A stretch of 38,612 nucleotides of DNA, taken from contig CAIRDL010000120.1 of assembly GCA_903877345.1 (NCBI GenBank), positions 1 to 38,612 of the forward strand, in the 5' to 3' direction. The stretch comes from an uncultured Oscillochloris sp. (GTDB lineage: Bacteria > Chloroflexota > Chloroflexia > Chloroflexales > Chloroflexaceae). Positions 160 to 33,662 of the stretch are shown piece by piece. Every line of letters starts with the position of its first letter. The first letter of the stretch is position 1. The notes beneath the pieces were generated by a model. That model searched no databases and was not told the DNA's origin. It saw only the letters and a list, made by a program, of their open reading frames with translations. A program made the position numbers and the translations under genes.

Positions 160-1092
160 GTGGCTGACAATCAACCGGGTCCGCAGCTTGCCCTGAGCGA
201 CAATGCCGCTAGGCAGCTCGCCAACACGACCAAAACCGCCCCTCTGCTCGCCACCATTACCCCGCGCTGGCTGGTTCATCTGCTCCAGTGGCTGCCCGTC
301 GAGGCTGGTGTTTACCGCCGCAACAAAGTTAAGAACCCTGGTAAAGTTGAAGTTGCATGCGGGAAGCAGGACGAGTCCGAACTGCCACAGACCTTCGTAG
401 ACTACGAGGAGAAGCCCCGCGAGTATGTGCTCAATACGGTTTCGACCGTGCTGGACGTGCATACACGCATCTCGGACTTGTACAACAGCCCACACGACCA
501 GATCAAAGAGCAACTGCGTCTGACCATCGAGACGATTAAGGAGCAGCAGGAAGGCGAGTTGCTCAATAATAAGGATTACGGCCTGTTGGCGAATGTCGAG
601 GCGAGCCAGCGCCTGACGCCGCGCACTGGCGCGCCCCAGCCCGATGATCTCGATGATCTGATCACCAAGGTCTGGAAAGAGCCCGCCTTTTTCTTGACGC
701 ATCCGCTTGCCATTGCCGCCTTTGGCCGCGAATGCACGCGCCGGGGCGTGCCGCCACCCACCGTCAGCCTCTTCGGCGCGCAGTTTCTGACCTGGCGTGG
801 CCTGCCGCTCATTCCTTCCGACAAAGTGCCGGTCACGGACGGCAAGACCAGCATTCTGCTGCTCCGCGTGGGCGAAAAGCGCCAGGGTGTGGTTGGCCTC
901 TATCAACCGGGGCTGGCGGGTGAGCAAGGGCCGGGGCTGTCGGTGCGCTTCATGGGCATCGGGCGCAACGCCATCGCCTCTTACCTCATCTCACTCTACT
1001 GCTCGCTGGCGGTGCTAACCGAGGATGCGCTGGCGGTGCTGGAAAATGTGGAGGTCACGAAGTACCATGACTACCGCGACACCTACCGGTGA
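160..1092 (+). CDS. family 2A encapsulin shell protein (SrpI-like)
   Basis: 310-aa ORF with a GTG start. Blocks typical of SrpI-type family 2 encapsulins as I recall them: ITPRWLVHLLQWLPVEAGVYR, HTRISDLYNSPHDQIKEQLRLTIE, VWKEPAFFLTHPLAIAAFGRECTRRGVPPPTVSLFG, GKTSILLLRVGEKRQGVVGLYQP, SLYCSLAVLTEDALAVLENVEV. Its size leaves no room for a cNMP-binding insertion, so 2A rather than 2B. A desulfurase cargo gene follows immediately. Confidence 0.8.
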   Translation: MADNQPGPQLALSDNAARQLANTTKTAPLLATITPRWLVHLLQWLPVEAGVYRRNKVKNPGKVEVACGKQDESELPQTFVDYEEKPREYVLNTVSTVLDVHTRISDLYNSPHDQIKEQLRLTIETIKEQQEGELLNNKDYGLLANVEASQRLTPRTGAPQPDDLDDLITKVWKEPAFFLTHPLAIAAFGRECTRRGVPPPTVSLFGAQFLTWRGLPLIPSDKVPVTDGKTSILLLRVGEKRQGVVGLYQPGLAGEQGPGLSVRFMGIGRNAIASYLISLYCSLAVLTEDALAVLENVEVTKYHDYRDTYR

Positions 1093-2893
1093 TGAGGTGC
1101 TGCAGGCGGTTGGGGTGCTTGCTGCAAACCTGCCCGATGAGGACATCTTGGCGCGTCTCGCCAATGAGTTCTTTCACATGCTGCCGGGTGAGGCGAGCGG
1201 GGTCTCGGTCGCCGATGCGCCGGTGACGCCTCCCTCCGCCCTGCCCACCGACCTCGCGCCGCCCCGGCTTGCCCCGGCAGCGGTGACGCCCACTGGCGTG
1301 CCGGATTACCTGGCGACCAGCGCCCCGGCAAGCGACGGGCGCGTGGGCGGTTTCGCCCTCGGCGTCCCTGAAGTCTATGCTGCCGCTTTGCCAAGCGTTG
1401 ACGCGGCCCCGGTGCCGGTACCCACATCGCCCTACTACTTTATTGGCGAGGCGAGTGCCTATCAGCCGCCTGCGGGTACGCCAAGTGCCGACCGCGTGAC
1501 GGCGCAGCCTTTTACCCTGCCAGGTGCGGGCGATTTTTCCACCCTGTTGGCAGGCATTGATCTGGGCTATGCCCGCGACCCGCAAGCAGCAGCCCCAACT
1601 GCCGCAGCGAGTCCCGATCCCCGGTTCTATTTTCTGGAGACGGGCGGGCCGACGGTGCTCCATAGCGCCCATCCGCCGTTCGATGTCCACGCCGTCCGAC
1701 GTGATTTCCCCATTCTCGCTGAGCGTGTCCACGGGCGGCCTTTGGTCTGGTTCGATAACGCCGCCACGACCCAGAAACCCCAGGCGGTGATTGACCGTCT
1801 GGCTTGGTTCTACGCTCACGAAAACTCGAATATCCACCGCGCTGCCCACGAATTGGCAGCCCGCGCAACCGACGCCTACGAGGGTGCCCGCGCCAAAGTG
1901 GCTCGCTTCCTCGGAGCTGCTTCGGCCCAAGAGATTGTCTTTGTGCGCGGCGCGACCGAAGGCGTCAATCTGGTTGCCCAGACCTTCGGGCGGCAACATA
2001 TCGGCGCGGGCGACGAAATCGTGGTCTCGTTGCTCGAACATCACGCCAACATCGTCCCTTGGCAGCAGATCGCGGCAGAAAAAGGGGCGCGGCTGCGGGT
2101 CATTCCCGTGGATGACAGCGGTCAACTGTTGCTCGATGAGTACAGTAAGCTGCTCAGCGACCGCACCAAGTTGGTGGCGATCACCCAAGTCTCCAACGCC
2201 CTTGGCACGGTGACGCCCGTCAGCGAGGTGGTGCAACTCGCCCACCGGGTCGGGGCGCGGGTGTTGGTGGACGGAGCGCAGGCCGTGTCGCACATGCGGG
2301 TGAATGTGCAGGCACTCGACGCCGATTTCTATGTCTTCTCAGGACACAAGGTGTTTGGGCCAACCGGCATCGGCGCGGTGTACGGCAAACAAGCGCTGCT
2401 CGACAGCCTGCCGCCCTGGCAAGGCGGTGGAAATATGATCGCCGATGTCACCTTCGAGCGCACGCTGTACCAACCGGCTCCGGCGCGCTTCGAGGCAGGT
2501 ACCGGCAACATCGCCGACGCCGTGGGCCTCGGTGCGGCGCTGGACTATCTGGAGCGCATTGGTCTGGAGAATGTGGCGCGTTATGAGCACCATTTGTTGA
2601 GTTATGCCACCCTGGGCATACAGACAGTGCCGGGGCTGCGACTGATCGGCACCGCTCGTGAGAAGGCGAGTGTGCTTTCCTTTGTGCTGGCGGGCTACAG
2701 CACCGAGGAAGTGGGCCACGCGCTGAATGAGGAAGGCATCGCGGTGCGTTCCGGCCACCACTGTGCCCAACCGATCCTCCGTCGTTTCGGCCTTGAAGCG
2801 ACGGTGCGGGCCTCACTGGCCTTCTACAACACCTGCGCCGAAGTGGATCACATGGTCGCCGTTTTGCGTACCCTCGTCCGGGGGCGGCGCTAG
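1067..2893 (+). CDS. cysteine desulfurase (SufS/CsdA-like, class V aminotransferase) with a disordered N-terminal encapsulin cargo-loading domain
   Basis: ORF 1025-2893. The most plausible ATG is at 1067, overlapping the shell gene by 26 nt; GTG 1097 is an alternative. The C-terminal ~400 aa carry VRRDFPIL, DNAATTQKP, the PLP-lysine motif FSGHKVFGPTGIG and the catalytic Cys in RSGHHCAQP. The N-terminal ~200 aa are Pro/Ala-rich and low-complexity, with LARLANEFF at 1148-1174. Confidence 0.85.
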   Translation: MTTATPTGDEVLQAVGVLAANLPDEDILARLANEFFHMLPGEASGVSVADAPVTPPSALPTDLAPPRLAPAAVTPTGVPDYLATSAPASDGRVGGFALGVPEVYAAALPSVDAAPVPVPTSPYYFIGEASAYQPPAGTPSADRVTAQPFTLPGAGDFSTLLAGIDLGYARDPQAAAPTAAASPDPRFYFLETGGPTVLHSAHPPFDVHAVRRDFPILAERVHGRPLVWFDNAATTQKPQAVIDRLAWFYAHENSNIHRAAHELAARATDAYEGARAKVARFLGAASAQEIVFVRGATEGVNLVAQTFGRQHIGAGDEIVVSLLEHHANIVPWQQIAAEKGARLRVIPVDDSGQLLLDEYSKLLSDRTKLVAITQVSNALGTVTPVSEVVQLAHRVGARVLVDGAQAVSHMRVNVQALDADFYVFSGHKVFGPTGIGAVYGKQALLDSLPPWQGGGNMIADVTFERTLYQPAPARFEAGTGNIADAVGLGAALDYLERIGLENVARYEHHLLSYATLGIQTVPGLRLIGTAREKASVLSFVLAGYSTEEVGHALNEEGIAVRSGHHCAQPILRRFGLEATVRASLAFYNTCAEVDHMVAVLRTLVRGRR

Positions 2894-8783: not shown

Positions 8784-9836
8784 ATGCACAGCGAACGACA
8801 ACGCATCTATTCGCGGGCACTGTTGGGGGTGTTTGCCGGGGGACTGGCGCTCGTGTTGAGCCTCTGGTCTTGGCGTACCTTTGCGGCGGCGAGCCTGTCG
8901 GCATCGCCCGCCAACCCGCGCCAGAACGACACGGTCAGCTTGGTCGGCACCGGCTTCGCCTCTGGCGAGACCGTCTCGGTCTGGATTACCTATCCCGACT
9001 TTACCGTATTTGGCGTGGCCGAGGTGGTGACCGGCAATGACGGCAGCTTCAGCTATCCGTACCTGCCCGATTTCTTGGGGGCTACCTACACCCCAACTGG
9101 CAAGTACACCTATACCGCCTTCGGCCAGAGCAGTGGCCGCGAAGTCTACGCGACGATCAACGTTGACATCGGCAGGGCAGCAGGCCCCTCGCCGAACGTG
9201 CAACTGACGGCTGAGCCACGCCGCGACACGCAGGGCAGCACCTATTTCTTCAGCGGTCGTGGCTACAGCACCAACGAAGAGGTGGCGATCTGGTTGCGCT
9301 ACCCCGATAACCACGTCGAGGATCTGGGGCGCATCCAGTCTAGTGCCGTTGGCGTGATCGGCTACGAACTCTATGTCGGCGGCGTGCCCGTCGGCCATTA
9401 CGCCTTTACCGCCCAGGGCCTCCGCACCGGCACCAATGGCATCGTCGAGTTTGATGTGCGGATTGATGATCTGACCCAGGCCAGCGGCACGGCCTACCTC
9501 CAAGTTACCGCCAGCCCCGACAACCAACGCAGCTACGCGACCTTCAAAGGCACCAGCTACAAGCCCGGTGAACTAGTCACGATCTGGGCCACCCTGCCCG
9601 ACTATTCGACCCTCTGGGTTGGCGACATCACGGCTGACAAAAATGGCATGTTCAGTGCCGTGCTGTATCTGAGCGAACAAGAGCCCGTGGGCAAGCGGAC
9701 GTACACGGCCTACGGCAACACCAGTGGTCGGCGGGCCATTGCTGACTACACGCTGACCCCTGGCGGTGGCCCTGGCGCTCTCGAATACGTTGATCCAATC
9801 CCGACGGGGCGCTGCGAGGGCAGTGGCTGCTTCTAA
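8784..9836 (+). CDS. secreted protein with three Ig-like internal repeats, unknown function
   Basis: Signal peptide, then three ~100-aa repeats of the pattern ASP.N....(S/T)..G.G(F/Y)...E.V.IW..YPD..........(T/S)...G.F. GAGGGAG RBS upstream, terminator downstream. Confidence 0.65.
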   Translation: MHSERQRIYSRALLGVFAGGLALVLSLWSWRTFAAASLSASPANPRQNDTVSLVGTGFASGETVSVWITYPDFTVFGVAEVVTGNDGSFSYPYLPDFLGATYTPTGKYTYTAFGQSSGREVYATINVDIGRAAGPSPNVQLTAEPRRDTQGSTYFFSGRGYSTNEEVAIWLRYPDNHVEDLGRIQSSAVGVIGYELYVGGVPVGHYAFTAQGLRTGTNGIVEFDVRIDDLTQASGTAYLQVTASPDNQRSYATFKGTSYKPGELVTIWATLPDYSTLWVGDITADKNGMFSAVLYLSEQEPVGKRTYTAYGNTSGRRAIADYTLTPGGGPGALEYVDPIPTGRCEGSGCF

Positions 9837-9878
9837 GGGTGCATAAAGTTTACGGAAATAGCACTGACCCACGATTGA

Positions 9879-9920
9879 CCCCCTCGCCTATGCTGTGTGG
9901 CACAAGCGAGGGGGTCTTTT
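9879..9920 (+). terminator. rho-independent terminator
   Basis: 9-bp GC stem ccccctcgc (9879-9887) / gcgaggggg (9906-9914), followed by tctttt. Confidence 0.7.
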
Positions 9921-9964: not shown

Positions 9965-12292
9965 CTATGTCCACGCCAGCACGAGCACGTTCAGTGCGCC
10001 GAAGCCCAACCGCCCACCCTGAAAGACGATGTCGTGCAGTTCGTCGTAGAGGCGGCGCGGCAACGGTTCGCTGTGGGCTGCGGTGTTGCGGATTTGGGTG
10101 ATGCGGGTAAGCGTGTGGTCAATCAGGGCGTCGAAGCTGATGACGCGCTCCGGGTCGTTCGGATTGGGCCGGTTGTTCCAGTGCGCGGCGACGTAGGTGT
10201 TGATGCGCGTCCAGTTCCCAGTAGTGTCATCCGTGCGCTTCAGGTAGGGGAGCCTGCCCAGAGTCTGCTTTTTGGGGTTGGTTACCTCGCCTTCCAGACC
10301 AGGACAGGCGAAGATGCGCCGCTTGATCACGATTTCAATAACGCTTGACAGGTGGATCGCCGGCGCGGAGTAGTCGGTCGCACGTACCTTGAAGAGTTGG
10401 TCGGTGAGAAAGATTGCCAGCGCCAGCGATTCCTGCTCCGTTGCGCTGAGTAGATCGAAGGTCGTACGCATCCCCAGCCCACGAACGCGCTCGTGGTAGA
10501 ACGCCAGATCTACGTGCGCCAGATCGGCGAAGCGCCGGGTCAGGTGCTGCACCCGTTCGGCGATAGCGCTCACCCGTTCCTCGCTCGGATCGTCTGCGGT
10601 GCCTTCGCCCAGGATGTGCTCCAGTTCCCGCAGCAGGCTCTCAATGTCACGCGGCGGACGAATGGGCGTGCGCGCCTCAGCCTGCCCGACAATGTGGCAG
10701 AGCCGTTCGTCCTGGCAGCAATGCATGGCGCGGCTCACCAAATCTACCCGCCACGGGCCAAGGTGAGGCTTCGGACAGACCAGGAGGTCGTCAGGACGCC
10801 CGTGAAGCGGCGTCCCCCAACGGTCGCTCAGCGCGCCCTGTTCGGTGACACTCACGCTATCAAGGAAGACCCCCTGACATACCGGCACGACCGGCTCGCG
10901 CAGGTCGGCGTGGGCGTGATCGAGCAACTGCACCAGGGCGCGCTGGATCTCCGCGCTGGGCAGATCGGGGCCGAGGGCGATCACGTCAACGCGCAGCCGT
11001 GGGTCGAGGCTCGGTGCGGCCGCACGCGCTGGTTGGAGGCGTTGTACCAGCGCGGGTACACCATCAGGGAGCGCCGCGTCGTCGCTCTCATCAGCCCGCA
11101 GAAACGCGAACAGCAAGCTGCCCCGTGTCTCTCCGGTTAAGGCTAGGTCGGCCAGCATGCGCTTGACCGGCCCGCTTGGCGCGTGGTTCCGGTCGCGCTC
11201 ACGATAGTATTTGGCATCCCAAATCACGCCGGGTTCGCGCCAGATCATCTGGTTGCTTGCATACACCTCGGTCATGGGTGGATCGCAGCGGCGCAGGTGG
11301 TAGTCTGGCCGTACCCCTGGCACCCGTGCATCCGCTGGCTCCGAACGCCAGACCGTGGGCTGTTCACGAATGCCTTGGTCATGACGGAGTTCGTAGTGGC
11401 GCATGGTGTCGCCCTCGCCCCAACGAAAGCGCAGCACCGCAGGCAGGTGGGTTCCCGTGTCGAGCAACCCGCGTCGGATGAGCAGATCCGCCACCTCGAA
11501 GAGGATCCAGAGTTGGTAGAGGCGATTATCCCGCCGTGGGTCGGCACCGAGCAGATCGGCGGGAGCGTCGGCAGGACGCCGCCGCAGCAGGTCGAGCGCA
11601 CGGTAGCGCCGCCGCCAAGCCAGCAGATCGTCGTAGGCGCTACTGCCGCCAGGTTGACCGCCAGCGGCGACGCGGGCCTCCAGTGCTTCGACTCCGCCAT
11701 GCGCGCCGTCGAGATACGCCTGGGCTGCGGTGCGGATGCCCGCAAATTGGGGGAAGGCCAACGCTCGTTCGCACCGCTCAACAATCACGGTGAGCGGGTG
11801 GCGCAGGCTTTCGGCTCCCAGCGCCACCGTGTCGCTCAGCAGGAGCCGCCGCACCGCGCTGCCATATTCCAACAGCGTTGCGACCGTCAGCAGGTTCGTA
11901 GGCGTGGCAAAGGTGCGGAGCCGTTGGCGGGCATGGACGGTCAGGGGCGGCTCGCCGGGACGCTCGTGCCAACTCGCCTCCAGGGTACGCTCCCAATCTA
12001 TGCGGCCACGCCCCGGTGGCTCTTCGACCACCAAGTGATGCGGCGAGACAAAGCTGAGCCGCCGCACGATGCGCGGCAGGATTTCCTCGAAGAGCGCGGT
12101 GCGAAGAAAGAAGAGCACGGCAAGATCGCGGTACACCTGGAGCGCCGCCGTGGTTTCCTCGCGCATGAAGTTCTGGTGGTCGGTGAAAAATTTGCGGTAT
12201 TCCTCCTCGCTGAAGCGCAGCAGCAAGGCGACCATGCGGGCCTGCATCTGACCGTAGGCCCGCTGCTCAGTTGGGGTAGGTTGGGCGGCCAT
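9965..12292 (-). CDS. McrC-like PD-(D/E)xK nuclease fused to a Cys/His-rich region and a C-terminal HEPN (Rx4H) domain
   Basis: 775 aa. The N-terminal region carries GRGRIDWERTL (McrC/DUF2357-like). Nuclease core is VRPD(330)YHL ... IWD(359)AK(361)YY, followed by VKRMLADLAL (nt 11210-11305). Cys/His cluster CPKPH...HCCQDERLCH at nt 10694-10777. C-terminal helical region ends in TRITQIRNTAAHSEP, where R735-N-T-A-A-H740 is cgcaacaccgcagcccac on the minus strand at 10073-10090. The start ATG is 1 nt from the stop of the upstream AAA+ gene. Confidence 0.75.
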   Translation of the reverse strand: MAAQPTPTEQRAYGQMQARMVALLLRFSEEEYRKFFTDHQNFMREETTAALQVYRDLAVLFFLRTALFEEILPRIVRRLSFVSPHHLVVEEPPGRGRIDWERTLEASWHERPGEPPLTVHARQRLRTFATPTNLLTVATLLEYGSAVRRLLLSDTVALGAESLRHPLTVIVERCERALAFPQFAGIRTAAQAYLDGAHGGVEALEARVAAGGQPGGSSAYDDLLAWRRRYRALDLLRRRPADAPADLLGADPRRDNRLYQLWILFEVADLLIRRGLLDTGTHLPAVLRFRWGEGDTMRHYELRHDQGIREQPTVWRSEPADARVPGVRPDYHLRRCDPPMTEVYASNQMIWREPGVIWDAKYYRERDRNHAPSGPVKRMLADLALTGETRGSLLFAFLRADESDDAALPDGVPALVQRLQPARAAAPSLDPRLRVDVIALGPDLPSAEIQRALVQLLDHAHADLREPVVPVCQGVFLDSVSVTEQGALSDRWGTPLHGRPDDLLVCPKPHLGPWRVDLVSRAMHCCQDERLCHIVGQAEARTPIRPPRDIESLLRELEHILGEGTADDPSEERVSAIAERVQHLTRRFADLAHVDLAFYHERVRGLGMRTTFDLLSATEQESLALAIFLTDQLFKVRATDYSAPAIHLSSVIEIVIKRRIFACPGLEGEVTNPKKQTLGRLPYLKRTDDTTGNWTRINTYVAAHWNNRPNPNDPERVISFDALIDHTLTRITQIRNTAAHSEPLPRRLYDELHDIVFQGGRLGFGALNVLVLAWT

Positions 12293-12293
12293 T

Positions 12294-14390
12294 CTACAGC
12301 CCTTGCTCGCTCACAAAGGCGCTCAGCCGCCGCGCAAACAGCCCATCCGGCGTGATGCCGAGCGGCGCAGGCGGGCCAAAGATCGCCCGCACCTGTAGCT
12401 CCGTCAGCGCCTCGGGGCGATGGGGGTCTACGCTGGATTCGATCAGGCGCAACTGGAGCAGGTGGGCGCTCTGGCGTGGCCCCGAGAGACTGCTGAGGAT
12501 GGTGCTGATGCTGTCGCGGAGCGCCGCGCTATCTTCGGGGTGAGCAATCAGGGCGAGGAGCACGCGCAGTTCGTCACGGGCAAGCACTTGGAGTTGATCC
12601 GCCAAGGTGTCGGCAAGGGCGGCATCGAGGGCGCGTTCCCACGCCATGCCGACCGCTCGACCAGCAAGGAAGTCGCGGTAGCCCGCCTCCGCCTGGGCGG
12701 TGCCAAGCTGTCGGTAGATCCGCACCGCCGCGAAGACGCGCCAGAACTGGTCGCTGGCCGTGCGCGCCGCCGGATCAGCGTCAGCGCCGATGGCGTAGCG
12801 TACCAGGGTGTCATGCTCGGCAGGGTCGGCCCGGCGCACACTGAGCGTCTGTGCCCAGGTGGCGTAGCCGAGGTCAATATCGGCGCTAAACCCCGTCAGG
12901 CCATGCTCCGCCAAGCGACTGAGCGCACCAAACAGCGCGAGCGCCTGTTCCTCAGCGGCGCGCTCACGACCGGGCGGCAGCACATCAATGAAGGTGAAAC
13001 GGCGCTTCAGCGCTTCGCTGATCTGATTGAGGAAGTGCCGGTCAAAGCTGTTGAGTGTCCCAATCAGCCGGAAGTCGTGCGGCAGGCGCACGGTGCGCTC
13101 GCCTTCGTCACTGGGAAAGGTGAGCGTCGGCTGCCGTTGGCCGCCAAGGGTGGTCAGCAACCCGCCGAAGGCGGCATCAACCTGGGCGCGGGTGAACTCG
13201 TCAATCACCAGCCAAAGACCGTGATAGCGGTTCTCCTCACCGTCGGTGGGTTCGCGGCGGGGCAATGCGCTCAGATCGGTCGCGCCGTCGCTATCAAACT
13301 GGTAATTTGCCAACACCGCCCGCGTAAGGCAGCCATACTCCACCCGGTAAACCAGCGTGCTTCCCCGCTCATCGCGCTGGATCTTCGGGGCAATCCCGCC
13401 AATCACATGGCGCACGCCCCAATCCTCGGTAGCCGTGACGACGTCAACTAGATAGCCCTCACGACGCAGGGGTTCCTCCAAGGGAGCCTCGGTCGGCGCG
13501 AGCGTCGGGTCATTCGGCAGCGTCAGCCGCAGCGTGTCCTGATCGTCACGCCAGAGAATGCGCGGGAGGATGCGGGCCAAGTGGGTTTTGCCGGTGCCGG
13601 GCGGGCCGCTGAGAATGACGTGGTGCCCGGCGATCAGGGAGCGGTAGATCCGCAGGATGGTCTCGCGGTCAAGCAGCAACTCGCGCTGAATTTCGGCAAT
13701 CCGTTCCTCCAGCACCGCCGACGGTAGGATGCGCAACGCGGCGTCGGTCAGGGCTGGCAGATCGTGCGGCCCGCTCCGCACCCGATGCAGATGCGCCAGA
13801 AACGTGTTGATCGCGTGCGCCGTCGTGCGGCGGTCGTCAAGCGGTGCAAGTGCCTGTGGGAGCGCTTGCCAAGTGCCATCGGCATTCCGTTGCGCCAGCC
13901 CGGCCTCTGCATACCAAGCGAGCAGTGGCTCGCCCAACGGCCAAGCCTCGGCTGCGTGGGGCAGCCCATCGAAGGGTGCCTCCAGAGCGGGCAAACGGTA
14001 CTCGTCTTCGTCGTTGCTTGGCACCAGCAGCGTCAGCGCACAATAGCGGAGCAACAAATCAAGGCTGGCATCACCGAGATGCGCCCAGCGCCGATAGCAC
14101 CCGTCGTCAAGCGGCTCCAACAGACGGAGGCACAGCAGATCATCCACCAGTTGGGCCGCGTCGAACGGCGCAGCGAGTGGCGCAATGGGCGGCATCACCG
14201 TCCCCAGCACATCGCGGATCGCAGCGGGCGTGTAGCGCTCACCGCTGAGATGGGTGGCTAGTTGCACGTAGGGTCGCAGCGCAACGCCGAGGGTGCGGGG
14301 CAGGGCGGTTGGCAGGGCGTTATCAATGAAGCGCTGCGCGGCGGCGTAGACGCGAACGGCGGCAGGGGTGGTGAGACGGGGCATTGGCAT
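12294..14390 (-). CDS. McrB-like AAA+ GTPase (AAA_5 family) with novel N-terminal (~250 aa) and C-terminal (~230 aa) extensions
   Basis: 698 aa. Walker A SGPPGTGKTH (13584-13607); TATEDWGVRHVIGGIAPK, the counterpart of the McrB YEDF..G..P block; Walker B LWLVIDEFTRAQVDAAFGGLLTTLG (D397/E398 at 13197-13202); RLIGTLNSFDRH with the McrB-type NxxD GTP-specificity motif (13041-13052); ALKRRFTFIDV. Confidence 0.8.
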   Translation of the reverse strand: MPMPRLTTPAAVRVYAAAQRFIDNALPTALPRTLGVALRPYVQLATHLSGERYTPAAIRDVLGTVMPPIAPLAAPFDAAQLVDDLLCLRLLEPLDDGCYRRWAHLGDASLDLLLRYCALTLLVPSNDEDEYRLPALEAPFDGLPHAAEAWPLGEPLLAWYAEAGLAQRNADGTWQALPQALAPLDDRRTTAHAINTFLAHLHRVRSGPHDLPALTDAALRILPSAVLEERIAEIQRELLLDRETILRIYRSLIAGHHVILSGPPGTGKTHLARILPRILWRDDQDTLRLTLPNDPTLAPTEAPLEEPLRREGYLVDVVTATEDWGVRHVIGGIAPKIQRDERGSTLVYRVEYGCLTRAVLANYQFDSDGATDLSALPRREPTDGEENRYHGLWLVIDEFTRAQVDAAFGGLLTTLGGQRQPTLTFPSDEGERTVRLPHDFRLIGTLNSFDRHFLNQISEALKRRFTFIDVLPPGRERAAEEQALALFGALSRLAEHGLTGFSADIDLGYATWAQTLSVRRADPAEHDTLVRYAIGADADPAARTASDQFWRVFAAVRIYRQLGTAQAEAGYRDFLAGRAVGMAWERALDAALADTLADQLQVLARDELRVLLALIAHPEDSAALRDSISTILSSLSGPRQSAHLLQLRLIESSVDPHRPEALTELQVRAIFGPPAPLGITPDGLFARRLSAFVSEQGL

Positions 14391-14506: not shown

Positions 14507-17500
14507 TCAGTTTTCCGCGTCGGTGGGCGTCAATAACTGGCTCAACAGGGCCAACAAATCGCGTAGACGCACCGGCTTGCTAAGATACGCCGTCGCTCCG
14601 GCCTCCAGGCAGCGCGTCCGATCCTCCGGCATCGCCAGGGCCGTGAGGGCTAGGATCGGCACCGTGGCGCCTGTAGGTAGCGCCCGGATACGCCGGATCG
14701 CTTCGAGGCCATCCATGTTCGGCATCTGGATGTCCATCATAATCACGCTGGGCCGCAGCGTCGCGAGCGTGGCTAACGCGCTGGCGGCATCCGGCGCCTC
14801 ATGCACCGTGAAGCGATGGGCCTGAAGGTAGTGCGCAAGCACCTTCCGCCCCACGGCGTCATCGTCAACGAGGAGCAGTGGAGCCACCGGGACGACCAGC
14901 GCCGTCGGCACGGCCACCGGCGTCGGCGGCGCGGTGATCCGCCGTGGGTTGGGAGGTACCGCCTCGGTTGGCTGGTGCCACGGCAACGTCACCGTGAAGT
15001 GACTGCCCTGGCCGGGGGTGCTCAACACGGTGATTTGACCGCCATGCAGTTCGGTCAAGCGCCGCACCAGAGCCAGCCCCAAGCCCGTTCCCGGTTGGCT
15101 GCGTGATAACCGCGAGTCGAGTTGCACGAAGGGTCGGAACAGCTTGGGTAGATCCAGCGCCTCAATCCCAATCCCGGTATCAGCGACCAGAAAGTGGATC
15201 ACCTGCGCCTCAGCGTCACCAGTCACCGTCAGGCTTACCCGGCCCCGTTCGGGGGTGAACTTCACGGCGTTGGCAAGCAGATTTACAAGGATTTGGGTGA
15301 AGCGGCGCTCGTCGGCGAGCAGTGTCGTCACCGTTGCGTCCAGCGACAGCGTTGTCCAGATTTGCTTAGCCACCGCCTGTGGCCGCACCAAATCCAGGCT
15401 CTGTTGACAGACTTGGGCCACATCAAGCGCCGTCAGTGCCAACACCTCTTGCTCAGCCTCGATTTTCGAGAGGTCGAGAATGTCGCTGATCAGCGCCAAA
15501 AGATGCATACCGCTTTGCTCAACTTGCTTCAGCGCCGCATCTTGCTGCGAGTTGAGCGCGCCAAGGACGGTGGTTTGGAGCAACTCGACATTCCCCAAGA
15601 TAGCGTTGAGCGGCGTACGCAGTTCGTGGCTCATCGCAGCCAAGAAGGCGGACTTGGCCTGATCCGCCACCTCGGCGACCTCCTTCGCCCGCAGCAACTC
15701 TTGGGCGGCCAACCAGCGCTCGGTACTATCGTGAATGACCACCATCCCTGCGATCACCGCGCCGTCGCCCGCCCGCACCGGCAGCACCTGCGCGTCATAG
15801 CGCCGCGCTTGCACGACCGTCTCAAAGGCACCAGTTTCGCCCGCAAGGGCCGCGTTGCAGTACGGTTCGAGCAGCGCCACCATTTCCGGGAACAGCCCCG
15901 ACGTGCGGATCGTCTGGGCCGTCAGATCTCCAGGTTGCTGCCGAAGTTGCCCGAGCGCCTGCCCGCCAGCGACGAGGCAGCGCAACTCGCGATCAAAGAG
16001 TACGACCGCACCATTGGGAAACTGCTCAACCAAGGTGCGATAGCGCGCTTCGCTGGCCCGCAAGGCTTCCTCCATCCGCGTGCGTTCGCTGACGTCACGC
16101 AGAAACGCCTGGAGCACATGGGCACCGTCGCGGGCGACCCGGCGGGAACTTACATTGACCACCACCGTCGAGCCGTCTGGGCGGGGGATCATGACATCAA
16201 ACATGAGTGCGCCCGCAGCGACGATCTGCGCGTTCCGCGCCCCAAGTTCTGCGGGCATTTCACCCGTGAGCGTGGTGATGTTCATCCCGACCAAAGTTTC
16301 CTGCGTGCGTTTGAAGATCGCACATGCCTGCGGATTCACATCAAGGACAATGCCGTCAAGGCTCGAAATGACCAGCCCGTCGTTGCAGTGTTCGACAATC
16401 GAGCGGTAGCGGGCCTCGCTGGCGTGAACCGCCTGGGTCAGCCGGTGCCGCTCTGTCACATCGCGCACGATAATCAGCGCCTCGTCAGGGGCGCTGCGGG
16501 TCAGGCGACCCTCATGGACATACACCTGTCCACGCACCTCGAAACTCTGCTCGACCGTCACTACGCCACCCTCCTGTAGCACGGTGGGCATGGCGGTCTC
16601 AACCGCTTGGGCCGTTCCCGCGTCAATCCATTGGGTCAGCGGGGTTCCATTCACATGCACGGGCGCTGCGGGCAACTGGGCTGGATTGGGGTGGTGCAGA
16701 CCCCGAATCAGCCCGTCGGCACCGAGCCGAAAGAGCATGTCGGGCATAGCACTGACCAGCGCCCGATTGGTTTCAACACTGCGCTGCCAATATTCTAGCT
16801 GCCGCGTGTGTGTGATGGCTAAGGCAAGAACCGCTGCGAAATCTTGGGCGATTTGAATAGCCTTTCCACCTAAAAGGCTCGAACGGTCACTCAGGATGAC
16901 CAACGCGCCGACCTGGTTCTCCTGTGCGCTGATCGGAAGTCTGAGCAGATACCGCCCGTCCGGCGGCGCACCGGCGGCAAGCTGCGGGTTGGTGGCGAGC
17001 TTGGCGCTGATCAGTGCCGTGGCGGGGCTGGTTGGGGCGAGGAACTGGGCGAACCACGTCTGCGTGTCTGCCGTTGCATTGGTGGCGAGAAGGCGCGGAC
17101 TGGCGTCGGGTCGCCCTTGTTCGAGGATCCAGACCTGTACCGGGCCAAGGGCTTCCAGGGTGGTGCGCAGCCCCGTTGCAGCGACCGTCGCCAAATCAGC
17201 GTTGTCCAGCGCTTGGGCAAAGAGTGCCCGCAGCGCCTGTTGACGCCGCTGCTCGACCTGATGTAATTGGCTGAGCCGGTTGACCAAACCGGCAAGGAGT
17301 ACGGCATCAAGGCCGAGCAAGCCCAAGGACGGGAAGCTGAGGGGCGCGGCGAGCAGCCGACCAGCGGCGAGACCGACAAGCCCAATGCTCAGGATGGTCG
17401 TGGGCAGTTTTGGGACGAGCGTCGCACCCACCGCCACACTGACGAGGAGGCAGACGCGCAGCACATCGCCGCTAAGCGCCGACAGGACGCTATTCGTCAC

Positions 17501-17563
17501 CAGGGCGACCGCCCAGAGGATCTGCAGTGGCGGTGCTGACCGGAGTGCGAGGAAATGCTTCAT
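14507..17563 (-). CDS. membrane-anchored hybrid sensor histidine kinase (TM-GAF-PAS-PAS-PAS-HisKA-HATPase-REC)
   Basis: H-box [14 protein letters not shown]-box [13 protein letters not shown]-boxes ADTGIGI and [13 protein letters not shown]-terminal receiver LLLVDDD...[12 protein letters not shown]...LSKP. Start set at ATG 17563 (MKHFLAL), 14 nt after the upstream stop; the track start 17617 would overlap the upstream gene. Confidence 0.85.
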
Positions 17564-17577
17564 CCTACCATCCAAAC

Positions 17578-20043
17578 TCACCCCGCGCTCGGCAAAGTCG
17601 GAGCCTTGCGCCGCCAATGCTCGATCTGCTCAACCAACTTGCGGAGACTCACTGGCTTGCTGAGATAGTCGTTTGCGCCCGCCGCCAAACAGCGCTCACG
17701 GTCGCCGCTCATCGCTAGGGCCGTCAGCGCGACCACCGGGATGACGGCGCTGCCAGCCTTCGCCCGGATGCGGCGGGTTGCCTCCAAGCCATCCAGCACC
17801 GGCATTTGGATGTCCATCAAAATCAGATCGGGCTGCCACTCTTCAGCCATACTCACCGCCTCCGCCCCGTTGCGCGCCACCAACACCCGATAGCCGTGCG
17901 CCTCAAGGTACTGGGTGGTCGTGCGTAAAACGACCTCGCTATCCTCGGCCAACAGCAGCACCGGACGCTCTTGCTCGTCTGGGCGAACGTGGAACTGCCG
18001 CTCTGGCGCGGGTTCGGGCGCAGGCTTGGGGGTCTGGTTTTGCCAAGGCAGCGAAACGGTGAAACTGCTGCCCACGCCGAGCGTACTCGTCACCTTCACC
18101 GCGCCGCCGTGTAGGTCGGCCAAACGCGAGACAAGGGCCAGCCCCAGCCCCGTACCCTCGTGGCGGCGGCTCAGGCAACTGTCGAGTTGCACAAATGGCT
18201 TAAACAGGCGCGGAATGTCCGCCGCAGCGATGCCGATGCCGGTGTCGGCAACCGTAAAATGGATGACCTCCGCCTCCGGGTCGCCGCGCACCTCAAGGTT
18301 GACACTGCCGCCTTGGGCGGTGAATTTCACCGCGTTGGAGAGCAGGTTGACCAAGATTTGTTTGAGGCGGCGCGGGTCAGCGGCGACCATCTCGACGAGC
18401 GGGTCAATAGTGCTGATCACGCGCAACCGTTTCGTCTGGGCGATCTGGCGCACCATGCGTAGACTGGCCGCGCAGATCTCTTCGACCTCCAACGGCTCAA
18501 TGGCAAGCTCGACTTTGCCCGCCTCAATTTTGGTCAAGTCGAGGATGTCGTTGATCAGCGCCAACAGATGCTGCCCGCTCTCCGCAATCATCTCCAGCGA
18601 CTGAGTCTGGCGCTCGTTTAACGCACCATACACGCCCTCGACGGTCGATTCCGACAAGGTCAGGATGGCATTGAGTGGCGTGCGTAATTCGTGCGACATA
18701 TTCGCCAAAAACTCATCCTTGAGCCGCGCCGCCCGCTCGAGCTGACTGTTGGCCGCACTCAGCGCGGCGGTACGTTCCGCCACGCGGCGCTCCAAGTTCT
18801 CGTTTGTCTGGCGGAGCAGCGCCTCGGCCTGTTTGCGCTCGGTAATTTCTTGAAAAAAAACCGTCACGCCTTTGGTCGCCGGGTAAATATGGCGCTCGAA
18901 CCAGCGGTTACTCGCATGATCATGCTCCTCAATCGTGACGGTAGTCTGGCGGGCAAGCACCTGACGGCAGGCTTGATGGAAGAGTTGGCCGAACCTTGCA
19001 GTGGGCTCATTGCCAATGCTCGTGCCGATCAGCGCCTCGGCGTCGCACCCGAGGAGTTGCGCCGCCCGTGGATTGACTCGGAGATAGCGCCAGTTAGCGT
19101 CAAGGGCCACAAAGCCCTCGGTGAGGCGGTTCAAGATCGCGTCCGTCTCACCACGCGCTTGCTCGGCAGCGGTACGCGAATTGATGGCGAAAGCTAACAG
19201 GCGTTCAAGCTCCTCGTTCGTCTGTTGTAACAACTGCTCGGCGGTGTGCTGCTCGGTAATATCTTCAGCCAAACCGACGACCCGGTACGGTGTGCCACGC
19301 GCATCATGCACCGGAAAAGCCCGGTCACGAATCCAGCGCATCGTCTGATCGGGCCGCATGATCCGGTAGACCACCTCGGTCATTTCGCCACACGTCTGCC
19401 GCTCCAACGCCTCCCGCGTTACCTCTTGGTCGTCCGGGTGAATAGGCATAACGAAAGATTGGGCATCGGCATAAAGGCTTTCGCGACTGTGTTGCCAGAT
19501 CTGCTCGTAGCTTGGACTCACGTAGAGTACTTGGTGGGTCTGGAGATCAAAGATATAAAAGACTTCGCTGATATGTTCGGTAAGCTGACGAAACCGCTCT
19601 TCGCTTGTGTGTAATTGCTGCTCAGTCGCGGCGCGTTGCTCCGTTTGGCGCTCGGCCTCGACAGGGTAAATCAGCGCCGTGGTGCCGTAGCCTGCCGTCG
19701 TGGGCCACGGTGTGAGCGTGAGCGTGAGGGGCAGGCGCGCACCATCACGGTGGAGGCCCAACAGGTGGATGCCTGGTTCGGGGGCGGCGAGGGGGTTGCC
19801 AGTCTGCGCTAAGGTGAGGGACTGGTGCAACTGGGCGGGCAGCAGCATCGTGAAGGGTCGGCCCAAAACCTCGGCGGTTGGGTAGCCAAAGAGTCGGGTT
19901 GCAGCGGCGTTCCACGTGCAGATCATGCCGTCCGGGTCAACCGAAACTACCGCAGCAGTGGCCGACGCCGCGACCGCAGCAAGCAGCGCGGCGAAGCTCG
20001 GTTCGGACGACGGACTCGCGGACGGAGCGGCGAGAGGCTTCAT
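17578..20043 (-). CDS. soluble hybrid sensor histidine kinase (PAS x3-4, HisKA, HATPase, REC)
   Basis: H-box [44 protein letters not shown], receiver LLLAEDSE...[12 protein letters not shown]...LSKP. Confidence 0.85.
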
Positions 20044-24612: not shown

Positions 24613-25572
<960 letters not shown>

Positions 25573-25579
25573 TTGTAGC

Positions 25580-25640
25580 TTTTAGATTGACGATTGTAGA
25601 TTTTAACTTGCAAGCTAAAGTCTACAATCCGAATCTAAAA
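25580..25640 (+). promoter_or_regulatory. nifH-nifB intercistronic bipartite stem-loop
   Basis: ttttagatt (25580-88) pairs with aatctaaaa (25632-40), and gattgtaga (25592-600) pairs with tctacaatc (25621-29): 18 bp in total with small internal loops. AT-rich. Confidence 0.6.
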
Positions 25641-25657
25641 TCCCCTAGGGAGCAGCA

Positions 25658-26587
25658 ATGGACACCCAGCCCACAAGTACCTGTCAGGGCAGTTGCATTC
25701 CGAAAGTTGATGTCAGCACGCACCCGTGTTACAGCAGCGCCGCCCACTTCCGCTTCGGGCGGATCCACGTTCCGGTGGCCCCGCGCTGCAACATTCAGTG
25801 TAATTACTGCATCCGTAAGTTTGCCTGCCCCAACGAGAACCGGCCCGGCGTGACGATGCGCGTCGTTTCGCCCGACCAGGCGCTCACAACTATTCGCGAG
25901 GCCGTCACCCGCGACCCGCGCCTGAAGGTGTTGGGCGTGGCTGGCCCCGGTGATGCCCTCGCAAACGAGGCCACGCTCGCCACCTTCGAGCGCGTCAAGA
26001 CTGAGTTTCCAAGCCTGACGCGCTGCATCTCGACCAACGGGCTGCTGCTGCCGGATCGCATTGAGGCCATTGACCGGGCCGGGATTACCACGCTGACCAT
26101 CACGATTAACGCGGTGGATCCAGCTATCGGCGAGCAGATCTATTCGCATGTACGGTACCACGGCAAAACCTATCGTGGCCGCGAGGCGTTTGAACTACTC
26201 AACCACAACCAGTTGACGGGGCTGCGCGAGGCTTCCTATCGCGGCATGCTGGTCAAAGTCAATGCGGTGCTCATCCCCGGCGTCAACGATGAACACCTCG
26301 TCGAGGTGGCCCGGGTGGCGAAAGACCACGGGGCTTACATCATGAACATCATCCCGATGCTGCCCCTGGCCCAGTTCGCCCATCTGCCGGAGCCGACGGT
26401 CGAACAGATTAACAAGGTGCGGAACGAGTGCGCCAAGGTGATTGAGCAGTTCCGTAATTGCCAGCGCTGCCGCGCCGACGCGATTGGTGTACCTGGCGAA
26501 GACGGGTGCGGCCCCACACCGGAGAAAGTTTGTGTGCCGAAGTTCCTGACTCAGCGTAAAGAGCAAGCCGAAGTCGCCGCCGACTGA
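25658..26587 (+). CDS. nifB: nitrogenase cofactor biosynthesis radical SAM protein NifB (stand-alone SAM domain, no NifX-like extension)
   Basis: 309 aa. HPCYSSAAHFRFGRIHVPVAPRCNIQCNYCIRKFACPNENRPGV (Cx3Cx2C), GVAGPGDAL, STNGLLL, C-terminal CQRCRADAIG. AGGGAG RBS. Confidence 0.9.
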   Translation: MDTQPTSTCQGSCIPKVDVSTHPCYSSAAHFRFGRIHVPVAPRCNIQCNYCIRKFACPNENRPGVTMRVVSPDQALTTIREAVTRDPRLKVLGVAGPGDALANEATLATFERVKTEFPSLTRCISTNGLLLPDRIEAIDRAGITTLTITINAVDPAIGEQIYSHVRYHGKTYRGREAFELLNHNQLTGLREASYRGMLVKVNAVLIPGVNDEHLVEVARVAKDHGAYIMNIIPMLPLAQFAHLPEPTVEQINKVRNECAKVIEQFRNCQRCRADAIGVPGEDGCGPTPEKVCVPKFLTQRKEQAEVAAD

Positions 26588-26697
26588 GTCCGCCGCCGGT
26601 TTTTACCACGCAGGCCGAACTGCTCTAGCTGTACCTTAGACCAACCTTCAGGTTCCATTCTCGTTTCGGTACGCGCATGGCTGTCGCCTGCGCTCAA

Positions 26698-26739
26698 CCT
26701 GAAACCTGAAACCTGGCCCCTGAAACCTTCCTTCAGGAG
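26698..26739 (+). promoter_or_regulatory. CCTGAAA heptamer repeats and a hairpin overlapping the nifD ribosome-binding site
   Basis: CCTGAAA at 26698, 26705 and 26719. cctgaa (26719-24) pairs with ttcagg (26732-37), overlapping the AGGAG RBS (26735-39); ATG at 26747. The 15-mer cctgaaaccttcctt recurs at 30709-30723. Confidence 0.45.
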
Positions 26740-26746
26740 ATCGACG

Positions 26747-28174
26747 ATGGAACTCAAGTGTAACGAAACCCTCCCCGAGCGAGCGCTACATATCGCGCTG
26801 AAAGTCGAGGGCGGGAAGTGCAAACGCGGCGACGGCGCTGGCTGCGCGATTGTCAGCAATTCGGCCACCACTCCCGGCGATATGACGGAGCGCGGTTGTA
26901 CCTACGCCGGTTGTCGCGGCGTGGTCGGCGGCCCGGTGAAGGATGCCATTCAGCTGACCCACGGCCCCATCGGTTGCGCGTTCTTCTCGTGGGGCTATCG
27001 CCCGCACTTGGCCGATACCGATTTCCACATGAAGTACACCTTCGTGTCGGATATGAATGAGACCAATATCGTCTTCGGCGGCGAGAAGAAGCTGCTCCAG
27101 TCCATCATCGAGGCCAGCCAGGAGTTCCCGGAAGCCAAGGCGGTTTTCGTCTACAACACCTGCTCGACCGCCCTGATCGGCGACGATGGCCGCGATGTCG
27201 CCAAACAGGCCGAGGCGATTATCGGCAAGCCCGTGGTTTTCTTCGAGTGCGAAGGCTTCAAGGGCGTCAGCCAGTCGGCAGGCCACCACGTCGGCAACGA
27301 GACCATCTTCCGCCAATTGGTCGGCTCGGCTGATGCGGCAGGCGATTTCAGCCGGACGATCAACATTGTCGGCGACTACAACATCAAGAATGACATCCGC
27401 ACCTTCGAGTATCTGTTCGAGGCAATTGGGCTGAAGATCATCACCCGCTTCACCGGCAACGTCTCGGTAGACGACCTGAAGATCATGCACAAAGCGGCGC
27501 TCAACGTCGTCCACTGTCAGCGCTCGGCCACCTACATCGCCGACATGATGCAGGAGAAGTACCAGACGCCGTACATCAATGTGACGCTGTGGGGGATGAA
27601 GCACATGGCCCAGGCGTTGCGTGACACGGCGGCGGTCTTTGGGCTGGAAGCGGAGGCCGAGGCGGTGATCGAGCGCGAGTTGGCGAAGATCAAGCCCAAA
27701 ATTGACTACTACCGCCAGCGCCTGACGGGCAAGAAGGTCTTTATTTACCAGGGCGGGCCGCGCACCTGGCACTGGATCGAACTGTTGCGCGAGTTGGGCA
27801 TGGAGACGCACACCGCCGCGACCACCTTCGGCCACGACGACGACTACGAGAAGATCTTCGAGCAACTCGACGAGGGTTCGATGATGATTGACAACCCCAA
27901 CGTGCCGGAGCTTGAGGAGATCCTGACCCACCGCCGCCCCGACCTGTTCATTTCGGGCAACAAAGAGAAGTACCTGGCCTACAAACTGGGCGTGCCTTTC
28001 GTCAACGGGCACACCTACGACACCGGCCCCTACGCTGGCTTCCTCGGTATGGTCAACTTCGCCCGCGACCTTGACAAGGCGCTGTACGCCCCGATTTGGC
28101 AGACCTTGAAGCGCCGGGCCAAGCCCGCACCCGCCGTCCATCACTCCGCCCACGGCTTTGAGGAGGTGCTCTGA
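26747..28174 (+). CDS. nifD: nitrogenase molybdenum-iron protein alpha chain NifD
   Basis: 475 aa. P-cluster Cys in RGCTYAGCRGVV, HGPIGCAFF and YNTCSTALIGDD. SQSAGHH, equivalent to Gln191/His195. Cofactor ligands VVHCQRS (Cys275 equivalent, nt 27515-17) and NGHTYD (His442 equivalent). Confidence 0.92.
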   Translation: MELKCNETLPERALHIALKVEGGKCKRGDGAGCAIVSNSATTPGDMTERGCTYAGCRGVVGGPVKDAIQLTHGPIGCAFFSWGYRPHLADTDFHMKYTFVSDMNETNIVFGGEKKLLQSIIEASQEFPEAKAVFVYNTCSTALIGDDGRDVAKQAEAIIGKPVVFFECEGFKGVSQSAGHHVGNETIFRQLVGSADAAGDFSRTINIVGDYNIKNDIRTFEYLFEAIGLKIITRFTGNVSVDDLKIMHKAALNVVHCQRSATYIADMMQEKYQTPYINVTLWGMKHMAQALRDTAAVFGLEAEAEAVIERELAKIKPKIDYYRQRLTGKKVFIYQGGPRTWHWIELLRELGMETHTAATTFGHDDDYEKIFEQLDEGSMMIDNPNVPELEEILTHRRPDLFISGNKEKYLAYKLGVPFVNGHTYDTGPYAGFLGMVNFARDLDKALYAPIWQTLKRRAKPAPAVHHSAHGFEEVL

Positions 28175-33655: not shown

Positions 33656-33662
33656 AGGCGAC

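Follow-up and report, generated by a model that had tools for sequence, protein, structure and literature searches.

A McrBC-like gene pair of Chloroflexota with a McrC homologue that carries a predicted HEPN domain

Contig CAIRDL010000120.1 of an uncultured Oscillochloris sp. (Chloroflexota; assembly GCA_903877345.1) was analysed over positions 1 to 38,612, hereafter the window. Between 9965 and 14390 its minus strand carries two intact open reading frames (ORFs), which an initial annotation, made without database searches, had described as a McrBC-like operon of atypical architecture. Gene A (12294..14390, minus strand) encodes a McrB-like protein of 698 amino acids (aa), or 696 aa when translation starts at the second methionine, as chosen by gene callers. 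Gene B (9965..12292, minus strand) encodes a McrC-like protein of 775 aa. Read along the coding strand, the junction is CTG TAG A ATG GCC, with the stop codon of A at 12294-12296, a single spacer base at 12293 and the ATG of B at 12290-12292. Judged from its sequence, this TAG-A-ATG arrangement (12290..12296, minus strand) is consistent with translational coupling, and tight junctions with a 1-4 nt overlap or a 0-3 nt gap also occur in relatives L002, L068, L071, L072 and L074. The two frames, the 1-nt junction and all the motifs cited in the initial annotation were found in place. We argue below that the pair is probably a McrBC-family (Type IV restriction-like) defence module, with a McrC subunit that would combine two nuclease centres.

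The McrB-like nature of gene A, already proposed in the initial annotation, is well supported. Its product matches the Pfam AAA_5 model at 5.4e-11, with a score above the gathering threshold. Among NCBIfam models the McrB model ranks best, yet with 36.6 bits against an equivalog cutoff of 637. The five best matches among PDB sequences are all McrB (6hz4, 6ut6 and 6ut3 among them), at E-values from 9e-10 to 1.9e-8, the next match being at 0.05; the nearest structures are those of the Escherichia coli and Thermococcus gammatolerans proteins. The AAA+ GTPase module (aa 236-470; 12981..13685, minus strand) contains the Walker A motif GPPGTGKT (aa 262-269; 13584-13607), TEDW (aa 321-324), the Walker B motif DEFTRA (aa 397-402; 13185-13202), FGGLL (aa 408-412), NSFD (aa 447-450; 13041-13052) and ALKRRF (aa 460-465), the nucleotide positions all being on the minus strand. 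Homologues of A numbered 328, and motif conservation was measured in 36 of them: Walker A and Walker B are kept in at least 95%, as is the N of NSFD, and its D is kept in at least 80%. In the PDB alignment NSFD falls on the NTAD region of E. coli McrB; according to the available text of PMC11090510, the NxxD signature sets McrB GTPases apart. On these sequence criteria, A is a McrB-family AAA+ GTPase, and by analogy with McrB it would be expected to use GTP.

The GTPase module is flanked on both sides by regions without a recognised domain. On the N-terminal side, a family-specific core (aa 28-235; 13686..14309, minus strand) is conserved in all homologues. A PDB profile search by hmmsearch and a Pfam search gave it no significant match, and its weak matches are to the winged-helix type families HemN_C, ROXA_wH and MarR_2. 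The C-terminal region (aa 471-698; 12297..12980, minus strand), delimited by within-family conservation, probably includes the AAA+ lid; it has no PDB match at E<=10, in line with the statement of the initial annotation that the last ~230 residues hold no recognisable domain. The same had been said of the first ~250 residues. No known domain is present there either, but this stretch actually consists of two parts, a 25-aa remnant of a deleted module and the family domain of ~210 aa.

Gene B has no match in Pfam, PADLOC, NCBIfam or PDB sequences, even at E<=1-10. Its 209 full-length homologues are annotated as hypothetical, with one named 'DUF2357 domain-containing' in UniRef; two homologues of a divergent sister clade bear the same UniRef name. 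The relationship to McrC was detected by structure prediction. An AlphaFold model built on 40 sequences (predicted local distance difference test score, pLDDT, 79.7) was compared with the PDB by Foldseek, and the top three matches are McrC chains (6hz4_M, 6ut7_G and 6ut6_G), at probability 1.0, with E-values from 3.8e-6 to 2.8e-5 over 442-493 aligned columns. B is thus, at the level of the predicted fold, a McrC homologue, and the suggestion of a McrC-like protein of about twice the classical size holds. The region corresponding to the McrC N-terminus (DUF2357-like; aa 1-275; 11468..12292, minus strand) is defined by the Foldseek alignment to McrC and by the UniRef names. It is followed by a PD-(D/E)xK core (aa 286-465; 10898..11437, minus strand), recognised by its conservation and by an alpha/beta core in the model.

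Conservation in B was examined in 40 homologues of the Chloroflexia clade that share 43-81% identity. Invariant positions are D330, E353, A360, C472, C506, H510, C525, C532, E653, R735, N736 and H740, and at least 90% of the sequences keep D359 and K361. Motif residues that stay invariant at this level of identity are therefore not a chance set. The predicted nuclease triad is D330 ... E353/D359-A-K361, with PGVRPD at aa 325-330 and DAKYY at aa 359-363; the codons of D330, E353, D359 and K361 lie within 11210-11305 (minus strand). Next comes a Cys/His cluster (aa 468-535; 10688..10891, minus strand) with the motifs CPKPH (aa 506-510), HCCQD (aa 524-528) and LCH (aa 531-533). The initial annotation had noticed such a cluster; its ligands C472, C506, H510, C525, C532 and H533 are invariant in both clades; some sister-clade members have extra CxxC pairs. 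The cluster is probably a zinc-binding module.

The last part of B (aa 545-775; 9968..10660, minus strand) resembles HEPN domains. According to PMC3710099, HEPN domains are all-alpha bundles with an Rx4-6H motif at the end of helix 3, in which R is followed by a polar residue (N, D or H), and with an upstream acidic residue, mostly within Ex3[KR], in helix 2; helices 2 and 3 are often separated by an insert, and some HEPN domains are non-catalytic. Modelled alone, the C-terminal domain of B is entirely helical (pLDDT 90.2). The sequence R735-N736-T-A-A-H740 (RNTAAH; 10073-10090, minus strand) stands at the end of a helix spanning residues 720-739, E653-x3-K657 (10322-10336, minus strand) lies within the preceding helix 642-659, with an insert of 60 residues between the two helices. 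R, N and H of the RNxxxH motif are invariant in 40 close sequences; in 21 distant ones R and H are invariant and N is kept in at least 90%.

Domain sequences from 21 close and 21 distant members were then compared singly with Pfam. HEPN_RiboL-PSP was matched by 5/21 and 6/21 members in the two scans (best 2.9e-5), the Swt1 HEPN family by 4 and 6 of 21, Abi_2 by 1 and 2 of 21, and DUF4145 by 5/21 in the first scan; Csm6_HEPN, MAE_28990, AbiU2 and RnlA_DBD gave one match each. Seven different HEPN families appear among these weak matches, and only HEPN families recurred in both scans. Non-HEPN families were otherwise singletons, except for FEZ and Homeodomain with two members each in the first scan. 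A distant full-length homologue matched RiboL-PSP at 1.1e-4. When the domain model was searched by Foldseek, RnlA ranked first (probability 0.84, TM-score 0.43, E 0.5), LsoA 10th and Csm6 29th; a search against viral structures (BFVD) gave only noise. A PDB profile search with the HEPN-like domain returned a single marginal match, to a DUF3732 protein at 0.005, located in the helical linker. The initial annotation had placed a HEPN domain here. Its RNxxxH motif, together with E-x3-K and the helical topology, is borne out, but no single profile or fold match is significant; likewise, in the structure search that it had suggested for B, the McrC fold is significant and the HEPN fold matches remain at E>0.1. 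From motifs, modelled topology and consistent sub-threshold profile and fold matches, we consider that the C-terminal domain of B is very probably a HEPN member. Its catalytic competence, as predicted from the motif residues, is somewhat less assured.

The B family is confined to Chloroflexota. It comprises a Chloroflexia clade (Chloroflexales, Herpetosiphonales and Kallotenue) and a divergent sister clade, mostly of Ktedonobacteria. The C-terminal domains of the two clades are homologous (hhalign probability 99.7) and otherwise diverge to about 20% identity. Among 11 sister-clade representatives, the PD-(D/E)xK residues are replaced in 6, and RNxxAH and the Cys/His ligands are kept in all 11. 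Retention of HEPN where the DNase is lost points to the RNase as a principal effector, as proposed for the CoCoNuT systems. The sister-clade proteins P0315, P0329, P0336, P0356, P0330 and P0317 (Ktedonobacteria, some Chloroflexales) are without the PD-(D/E)xK residues and keep Ex3K. The divergent P0300 and P0301 are the only two proteins found to have lost the RN..H motif.

Searched against 1.84 billion representatives, a profile of the HEPN-like domain matched only 140 proteins at E<=1e-3. Outside B the domain occurs alone or fused to N6/N4 DNA methylases or Sel1 repeats. Conversely, shorter relatives of ~525 aa span only about two-thirds of the family profile, match it only up to position ~545 and therefore apparently do not contain the HEPN-like domain. 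Several genomes harbour multiple paralogues. No match to B was found by tblastn in 72,556 plasmids and 50,697 phages. Copies of the pair broken by several frameshifts were seen in L050 and L056; L050 belongs to a metagenome-assembled genome labelled Candidatus Gracilibacteria, and this low-coverage contig (coverage 3.2) is probably misbinned Chloroflexota DNA.

The initial annotation had proposed a survey of homologues for conserved pairing and defence contexts, and both were found. Where the upstream sequence was long enough to judge (35 loci), B is immediately preceded by a same-strand A homologue in 32. ARMADA-like genes adjoin 14 of the 24 related loci for which at least 4 kb of upstream sequence is available. 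Kallotenue papyrolyticum and Chloroploca sp. Khr17 have the pair at the end of an array of genes on one strand, after a SNF2 helicase and a PglX/MmeI-like methyltransferase that have a small PDDEXK_3 gene between them or next to them; in K. papyrolyticum this array is preceded by a YprA-MZB helicase. Both of these pairs have a short McrB without reader domain, and the same ARMADA-like partners surround a long-form pair in Herpetosiphon aurantiacus. According to the accessible part of 10.1101/2025.09.15.676423, YprA-MZB, SNF2 and PglX-like partners define ARMADA Type I, and protection against phages by ARMADA was shown experimentally. Other relatives have different neighbours: GmrSD, a DEAD-HNH protein and an integrase in one case, CHAT, AAA_22 and an integrase in another, and EVE-NOV_C, a second McrC-like (DUF2357-PDDEXK_7) gene and IS66 in a third.

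Comparison with these relatives and their loci also revealed two features that the initial annotation had not seen, a deletion in gene A and the detachment of the window copy from ARMADA. The N-terminal architecture of the A family was read from 120 listed homologues, whose conserved core corresponds to residues ~28-698 of the window protein. Most of these proteins have an additional N-terminal extension of 90-630 residues. The commonest is a conserved domain of ~260 aa, labelled PF28530 (DUF8426) in a newer Pfam release for the Ktedonobacter racemifer relative (L068 6723-10004) and without significant PDB match in a profile search by hmmsearch. In some homologues EVE, Mrr_N or HARE-HTH domains replace this domain or are added to it, and only 18 of the 120 consist of the core by itself (660-700 aa).

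The window protein begins with MPMPRLTTPAAVRVYAAAQRFIDNAL, which is the long-form start of its closest relatives P0122 and L074 (84% identical), and its N-terminus MPRLTTPAAVRVYAAAQRFIDNAL is identical to their first 24 aa. Directly after FIDNAL, the window protein runs into PTALPRTLG, found at residue ~376-382 of the long forms. Since a long-form start is joined here to a sequence located ~350 residues further on, gene A of the window is an in-frame deletion derivative. Compared with L074 (4485-7646), ~350 codons are missing, with the junction at ~14312/14313 (codons 26/27), and aa 1-27 (14310..14390, minus strand) are the remnant of the long-form N-terminal module. The deleted segment comprises the ~260-aa domain and the following segment, which is helix-turn-helix-like. 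Close to the junction lies a GCCCTGC repeat, a candidate microhomology that would be assignable only with the direct ancestor at hand. A second contig (L075) shares the deletion. Between it and the window, gene A shows 59.5 synonymous and 28.5 non-synonymous differences, with a ratio of non-synonymous to synonymous rates (dN/dS) of 0.16, and the ratio for gene B is 0.11. Purifying selection on both genes has therefore continued after the deletion. With this presumed reader module lost, targeting by the window copy must rest on the ~210-aa N-terminal core or on partners encoded elsewhere.

In the window the pair is solitary. Its neighbours are a hybrid histidine kinase gene on one side and the gene of a secreted protein on the other, amid housekeeping and photosynthesis genes, and none of the ARMADA genes (YprA-MZB, BrxHII-like SNF2, PglX-like) occurs in the 38.6-kb window. 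This gene arrangement recurs in several metagenomes, and an identical B protein is encoded on 23 contigs. Directly upstream of A are tandem hybrid histidine kinase genes (PAS-HisKA-HATPase-REC; 14507-20043, minus strand) of 1036 and 821 aa, overlapping by ~40 nt. They may be co-transcribed with the pair; a conserved link is ruled out, the upstream neighbours being different in every relative examined. At the other end, a perfect 17-bp GC-rich hairpin (9877..9916, minus strand), 50 nt past the stop codon of B, separates the ends of the convergent gene B and secreted-protein gene. It folds at -40.8 kcal/mol (z = -5.3), and not one shuffled sequence out of 200 folded as stably. Although a U tract is missing, the hairpin is likely a terminator and may be bidirectional. 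The convergent gene (8784-9836, plus strand) encodes a predicted secreted protein of 350 aa without Pfam match, apparently made of three ~100-aa repeats, each with G-x-V-x-[IV]-W-x-x-x-P-D.

Further from the pair, two overlapping genes occupy 160-2893 (plus strand). The first encodes a Type 2A encapsulin shell protein (SrpI-like, 2.7e-106) and the second a cysteine desulfurase (Aminotran_5, 4.5e-146) with an N-terminal extension of ~240 aa; the two look like a classic encapsulin-cargo pair. At 24619-29601 (plus strand), genes for a NifH/BchL-type Fe protein, a radical-SAM protein and two nitrogenase-component-1-type subunits stand in a row. Such a row resembles a (bacterio)chlorophyll reductase cluster of the BchXYZ or BchLNB type and would be in keeping with a phototrophic host from the Chloroflexales. 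Finally, a diadenylate cyclase gene (DAC domain) followed by an overlapping YbbR-repeat gene (32243-34481, minus strand) resembles a CdaA-CdaR module of cyclic di-AMP signalling.

Several observations weigh against a functional dual-nuclease McrBC module. The Pfam DUF2357 and PDDEXK models, including PDDEXK_7, give nothing with B at E<=1; the assignment of B to McrC is therefore made at the level of the predicted fold. The template modelling (TM) scores of B against McrC are low (0.18 by query and 0.35 by target) because the query is a multi-domain protein. A PADLOC run, suggested in the initial annotation, was unproductive, with no model in PADLOC-DB v2.0.0 matching B and weak matches only for A. 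Concerning the HEPN-like domain, the best Pfam match has 22.6 bits against a curated cutoff of 28.4, so that no HEPN match reaches threshold, the RnlA, LsoA and Csm6 fold matches are not significant (all E>0.1), and PDB profile searches by hmmsearch returned no HEPN structure. As to the window copy itself, A consists of the ~25-aa remnant and the family-specific domain ahead of the GTPase, with no reader of DNA or of modified bases of known fold. No methyltransferase, helicase or integrase was found nearby. No sigma-70-like promoter site was detected upstream of A, in a scan that is uninformative for Chloroflexota. Being solitary, surrounded by housekeeping genes and without a reader, this copy may be impaired.

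The family memberships of the two proteins, their conserved motifs, their pairing and contexts, the deletion and the purifying selection are established by the comparisons above. The use of GTP, the assembly of hexamer and effector, the two nuclease activities, their coupling and the defence role are predictions drawn by analogy with known systems. A McrBC-family defence module with a dual-nuclease McrC is the probable interpretation. By homology with McrBC structures, A would form a GTP-driven hexameric ring, into which B would plug through its N-terminal region. B would bring two nuclease centres in one polypeptide, a PD-(D/E)xK DNase and a metal-independent HEPN RNase, with the zinc module between them. 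In most relatives this module constitutes the 3' end of an ARMADA/DISARM-like superoperon, with a McrB carrying variable N-terminal readers. The GTPase motor would load on foreign DNA and translocate; the meeting or stalling of two motor-effector complexes would juxtapose their McrC-like subunits and license DNA cleavage, as in McrBC. HEPN RNases need a composite active site made by two domains. Juxtaposed B subunits could provide it, and the HEPN pair would then cut nearby transcripts or, if restriction fails, host RNA. We tentatively propose that a McrB-type motor directly gates a HEPN RNase in this manner, collision or stalling on foreign DNA dimerising the HEPN tails and switching on RNA cleavage. 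Lineages without DNase would then be DNA-triggered, RNA-only effectors, and the reader-less window copy a minimal working form. This specific coupling is possible but far from assured.

The RNase could also be controlled otherwise. In a fail-safe device similar to PrrC/RloC, HEPN would be silenced within the complex and freed by phage inhibition or by damage signals, leading to abortive cutting of host tRNA, mRNA or rRNA that is not coupled to collision. Such a logic was proposed generally for HEPN domains fused to restriction-modification nucleases and ATPases (Anantharaman et al., PMC3710099); the stronger constraint on the HEPN motif than on the DNase motif in the sister clade, and the existence of reader-less short forms at several divergence levels, would agree with it. 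However, no antitoxin-like or inhibitor gene accompanies the pair, and the accessible part of 10.1101/2025.09.15.676423 describes ARMADA, its usual neighbour, as acting directly and non-abortively. We regard this control as doubtful, although sequence data alone do not separate it from gating by collision.

A reading of the window copy as a functionless remnant in decay, detached and stripped of its reader, its conservation reflecting no more than the recency of the deletion, appears unlikely. Both ORFs are intact and the dN/dS ratios against the deletion-sharing contig are low. Reader-less forms of 660-700 aa recur independently among the listed homologues (18/120), including in the complete ARMADA-like operons of Kallotenue and Chloroploca, and the identical B protein is spread over 23 contigs from several metagenomes. 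These facts outweigh, in our opinion, the solitary position among housekeeping genes, the ~350 codons lost in frame by comparison with the closest long form, the failure to find a promoter-like site and the frameshifted or orphaned state of relatives L050, L056, L033 and L046. Finally, that the C-terminal domain is no nuclease but a helical nucleic-acid-binding, dimerisation or regulatory domain with a chance R-x4-H, leaving a DNA-only McrBC variant, is improbable: the sub-significant HEPN profile and fold matches, the PDB sequence-profile searches that returned no HEPN structure and the known non-catalytic HEPN domains (PMC3710099) would allow it, but neither R nor H varies in either clade, N being invariant or kept in at least 90% and E-x3-K conserved while the remainder falls to ~20% identity, the motif sits at the canonical helix end in the models, sister-clade members without DNase residues keep it, which suggests a remaining catalytic activity, and it is lost only in the divergent P0300 and P0301.

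A dual-nuclease McrBC module, which we continue to prefer, can be compared with several known systems. McrBC is the textbook modification-dependent restriction system. Its E. coli and T. gammatolerans representatives (6hz4, 6ut6, 6ut3-6ut7) are organised like the pair, an NxxD McrB being followed by a PD-(D/E)xK McrC, and they are closest to A in sequence and to B in fold. The variable N-terminal readers of McrB are a trait shared by the pair's family as a whole, not by the window copy. B is about twice as large as McrC, to which it adds the Cys/His module and the HEPN-like domain, and its identity to the Pfam McrC models is too low for a match. Compared with McrB, A has in addition the conserved N-terminal core of ~210 aa and ~230 unmatched C-terminal residues.

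HEPN-restriction endonuclease fusions in restriction-modification systems, and HEPN genes near McrBC, were catalogued in 2013 (Anantharaman et al., PMC3710099). In these fusions (DUF4145, EC042_2821 and Swt1/Abi2-type), a DNase and an Rx4-6H HEPN domain are likewise joined in one polypeptide, a zinc ribbon is sometimes present, and DUF4145 was reported in McrB/C operons (PMC3710099). B differs from them in that its endonuclease is a McrC with an N-terminal McrB-docking region. Its HEPN-like domain belongs to no curated family, the nearest weak similarities being to RiboL-PSP and Swt1; the best fold neighbours are RnlA and LsoA, with a match that is not significant (E 0.5). RnlA/LsoA and PrrC/RloC have a metal-independent Rx4-6H active site, the type of motif seen in B, and PrrC is a model for an RNase restrained by a restriction enzyme (PMC3710099). 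In contrast to these proteins, the pair has neither an ABC ATPase nor an NRD/Dmd-binding architecture, and it lacks an antitoxin gene.

According to the available text of PMC11090510, canonical NxxD McrBC operons frequently have a DISARM-like cassette with them; this clade is deferred there to a later paper. The McrBC operons associated with DISARM-like systems and with ARMADA Type I have the same partners as 14 of 24 loci of our relatives, and the window copy stands without them. The available texts of PMC11090510 and 10.1101/2025.09.15.676423 do not describe a HEPN-fused McrC. If both centres of B are active, the family would add a missing module to the ARMADA/DISARM-like superoperons.

The closest conceptual parallel is offered by the CoCoNuTs, in which, as far as the accessible part of PMC11090510 goes, McrB and McrC are linked to HEPN RNases and targeting of both DNA and RNA is predicted. 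The trend noted there towards McrC nucleases inactivated while HEPN is kept is also seen in our sister clade, seemingly caught giving up its DNase. By the same text, CoCoNuT GTPases have a shortened NxD motif and long coiled coils, whereas NSFD of A is an NxxD; their HEPN is a separate protein, CnuE, beside a CnuH helicase, whereas here it is fused to the McrC homologue; and they occur mainly in Pseudomonadota and Bacillota, whereas the pair's family is found only in Chloroflexota. The window has no CnuE-like or helicase gene, the cassette consisting of two genes. NxxD in place of NxD, the absence of CnuE and CnuH and the fusion of HEPN to McrC rule out CoCoNuT membership.

The initial annotation had called the architecture undescribed. 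This stands for the exact fusion, since no description of a McrC-zinc-HEPN protein was found in the searchable literature, but its ingredients are known from HEPN-restriction endonuclease fusions (PMC3710099) and, within the available text of PMC11090510, from CoCoNuTs and DISARM-linked McrBC. The pair is a rare McrBC variant, conceptually anticipated, and not a new kind of system; a gap in PADLOC-DB v2.0.0 was exposed by gene B. The family is rare and taxonomically narrow, which limits its practical scope. If both centres are active, it would nevertheless offer a compact two-protein model of a DNA-translocating motor that controls an RNase, and of a hand-over from restriction to abortive infection. 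CoCoNuTs are RNA-targeting forms of McrBC with a modified NxD GTPase and an RNase that is always on a separate protein; the pair's family would represent a second, independent route, in which a canonical NxxD McrB is combined with a McrC that itself carries a HEPN RNase and a zinc module.

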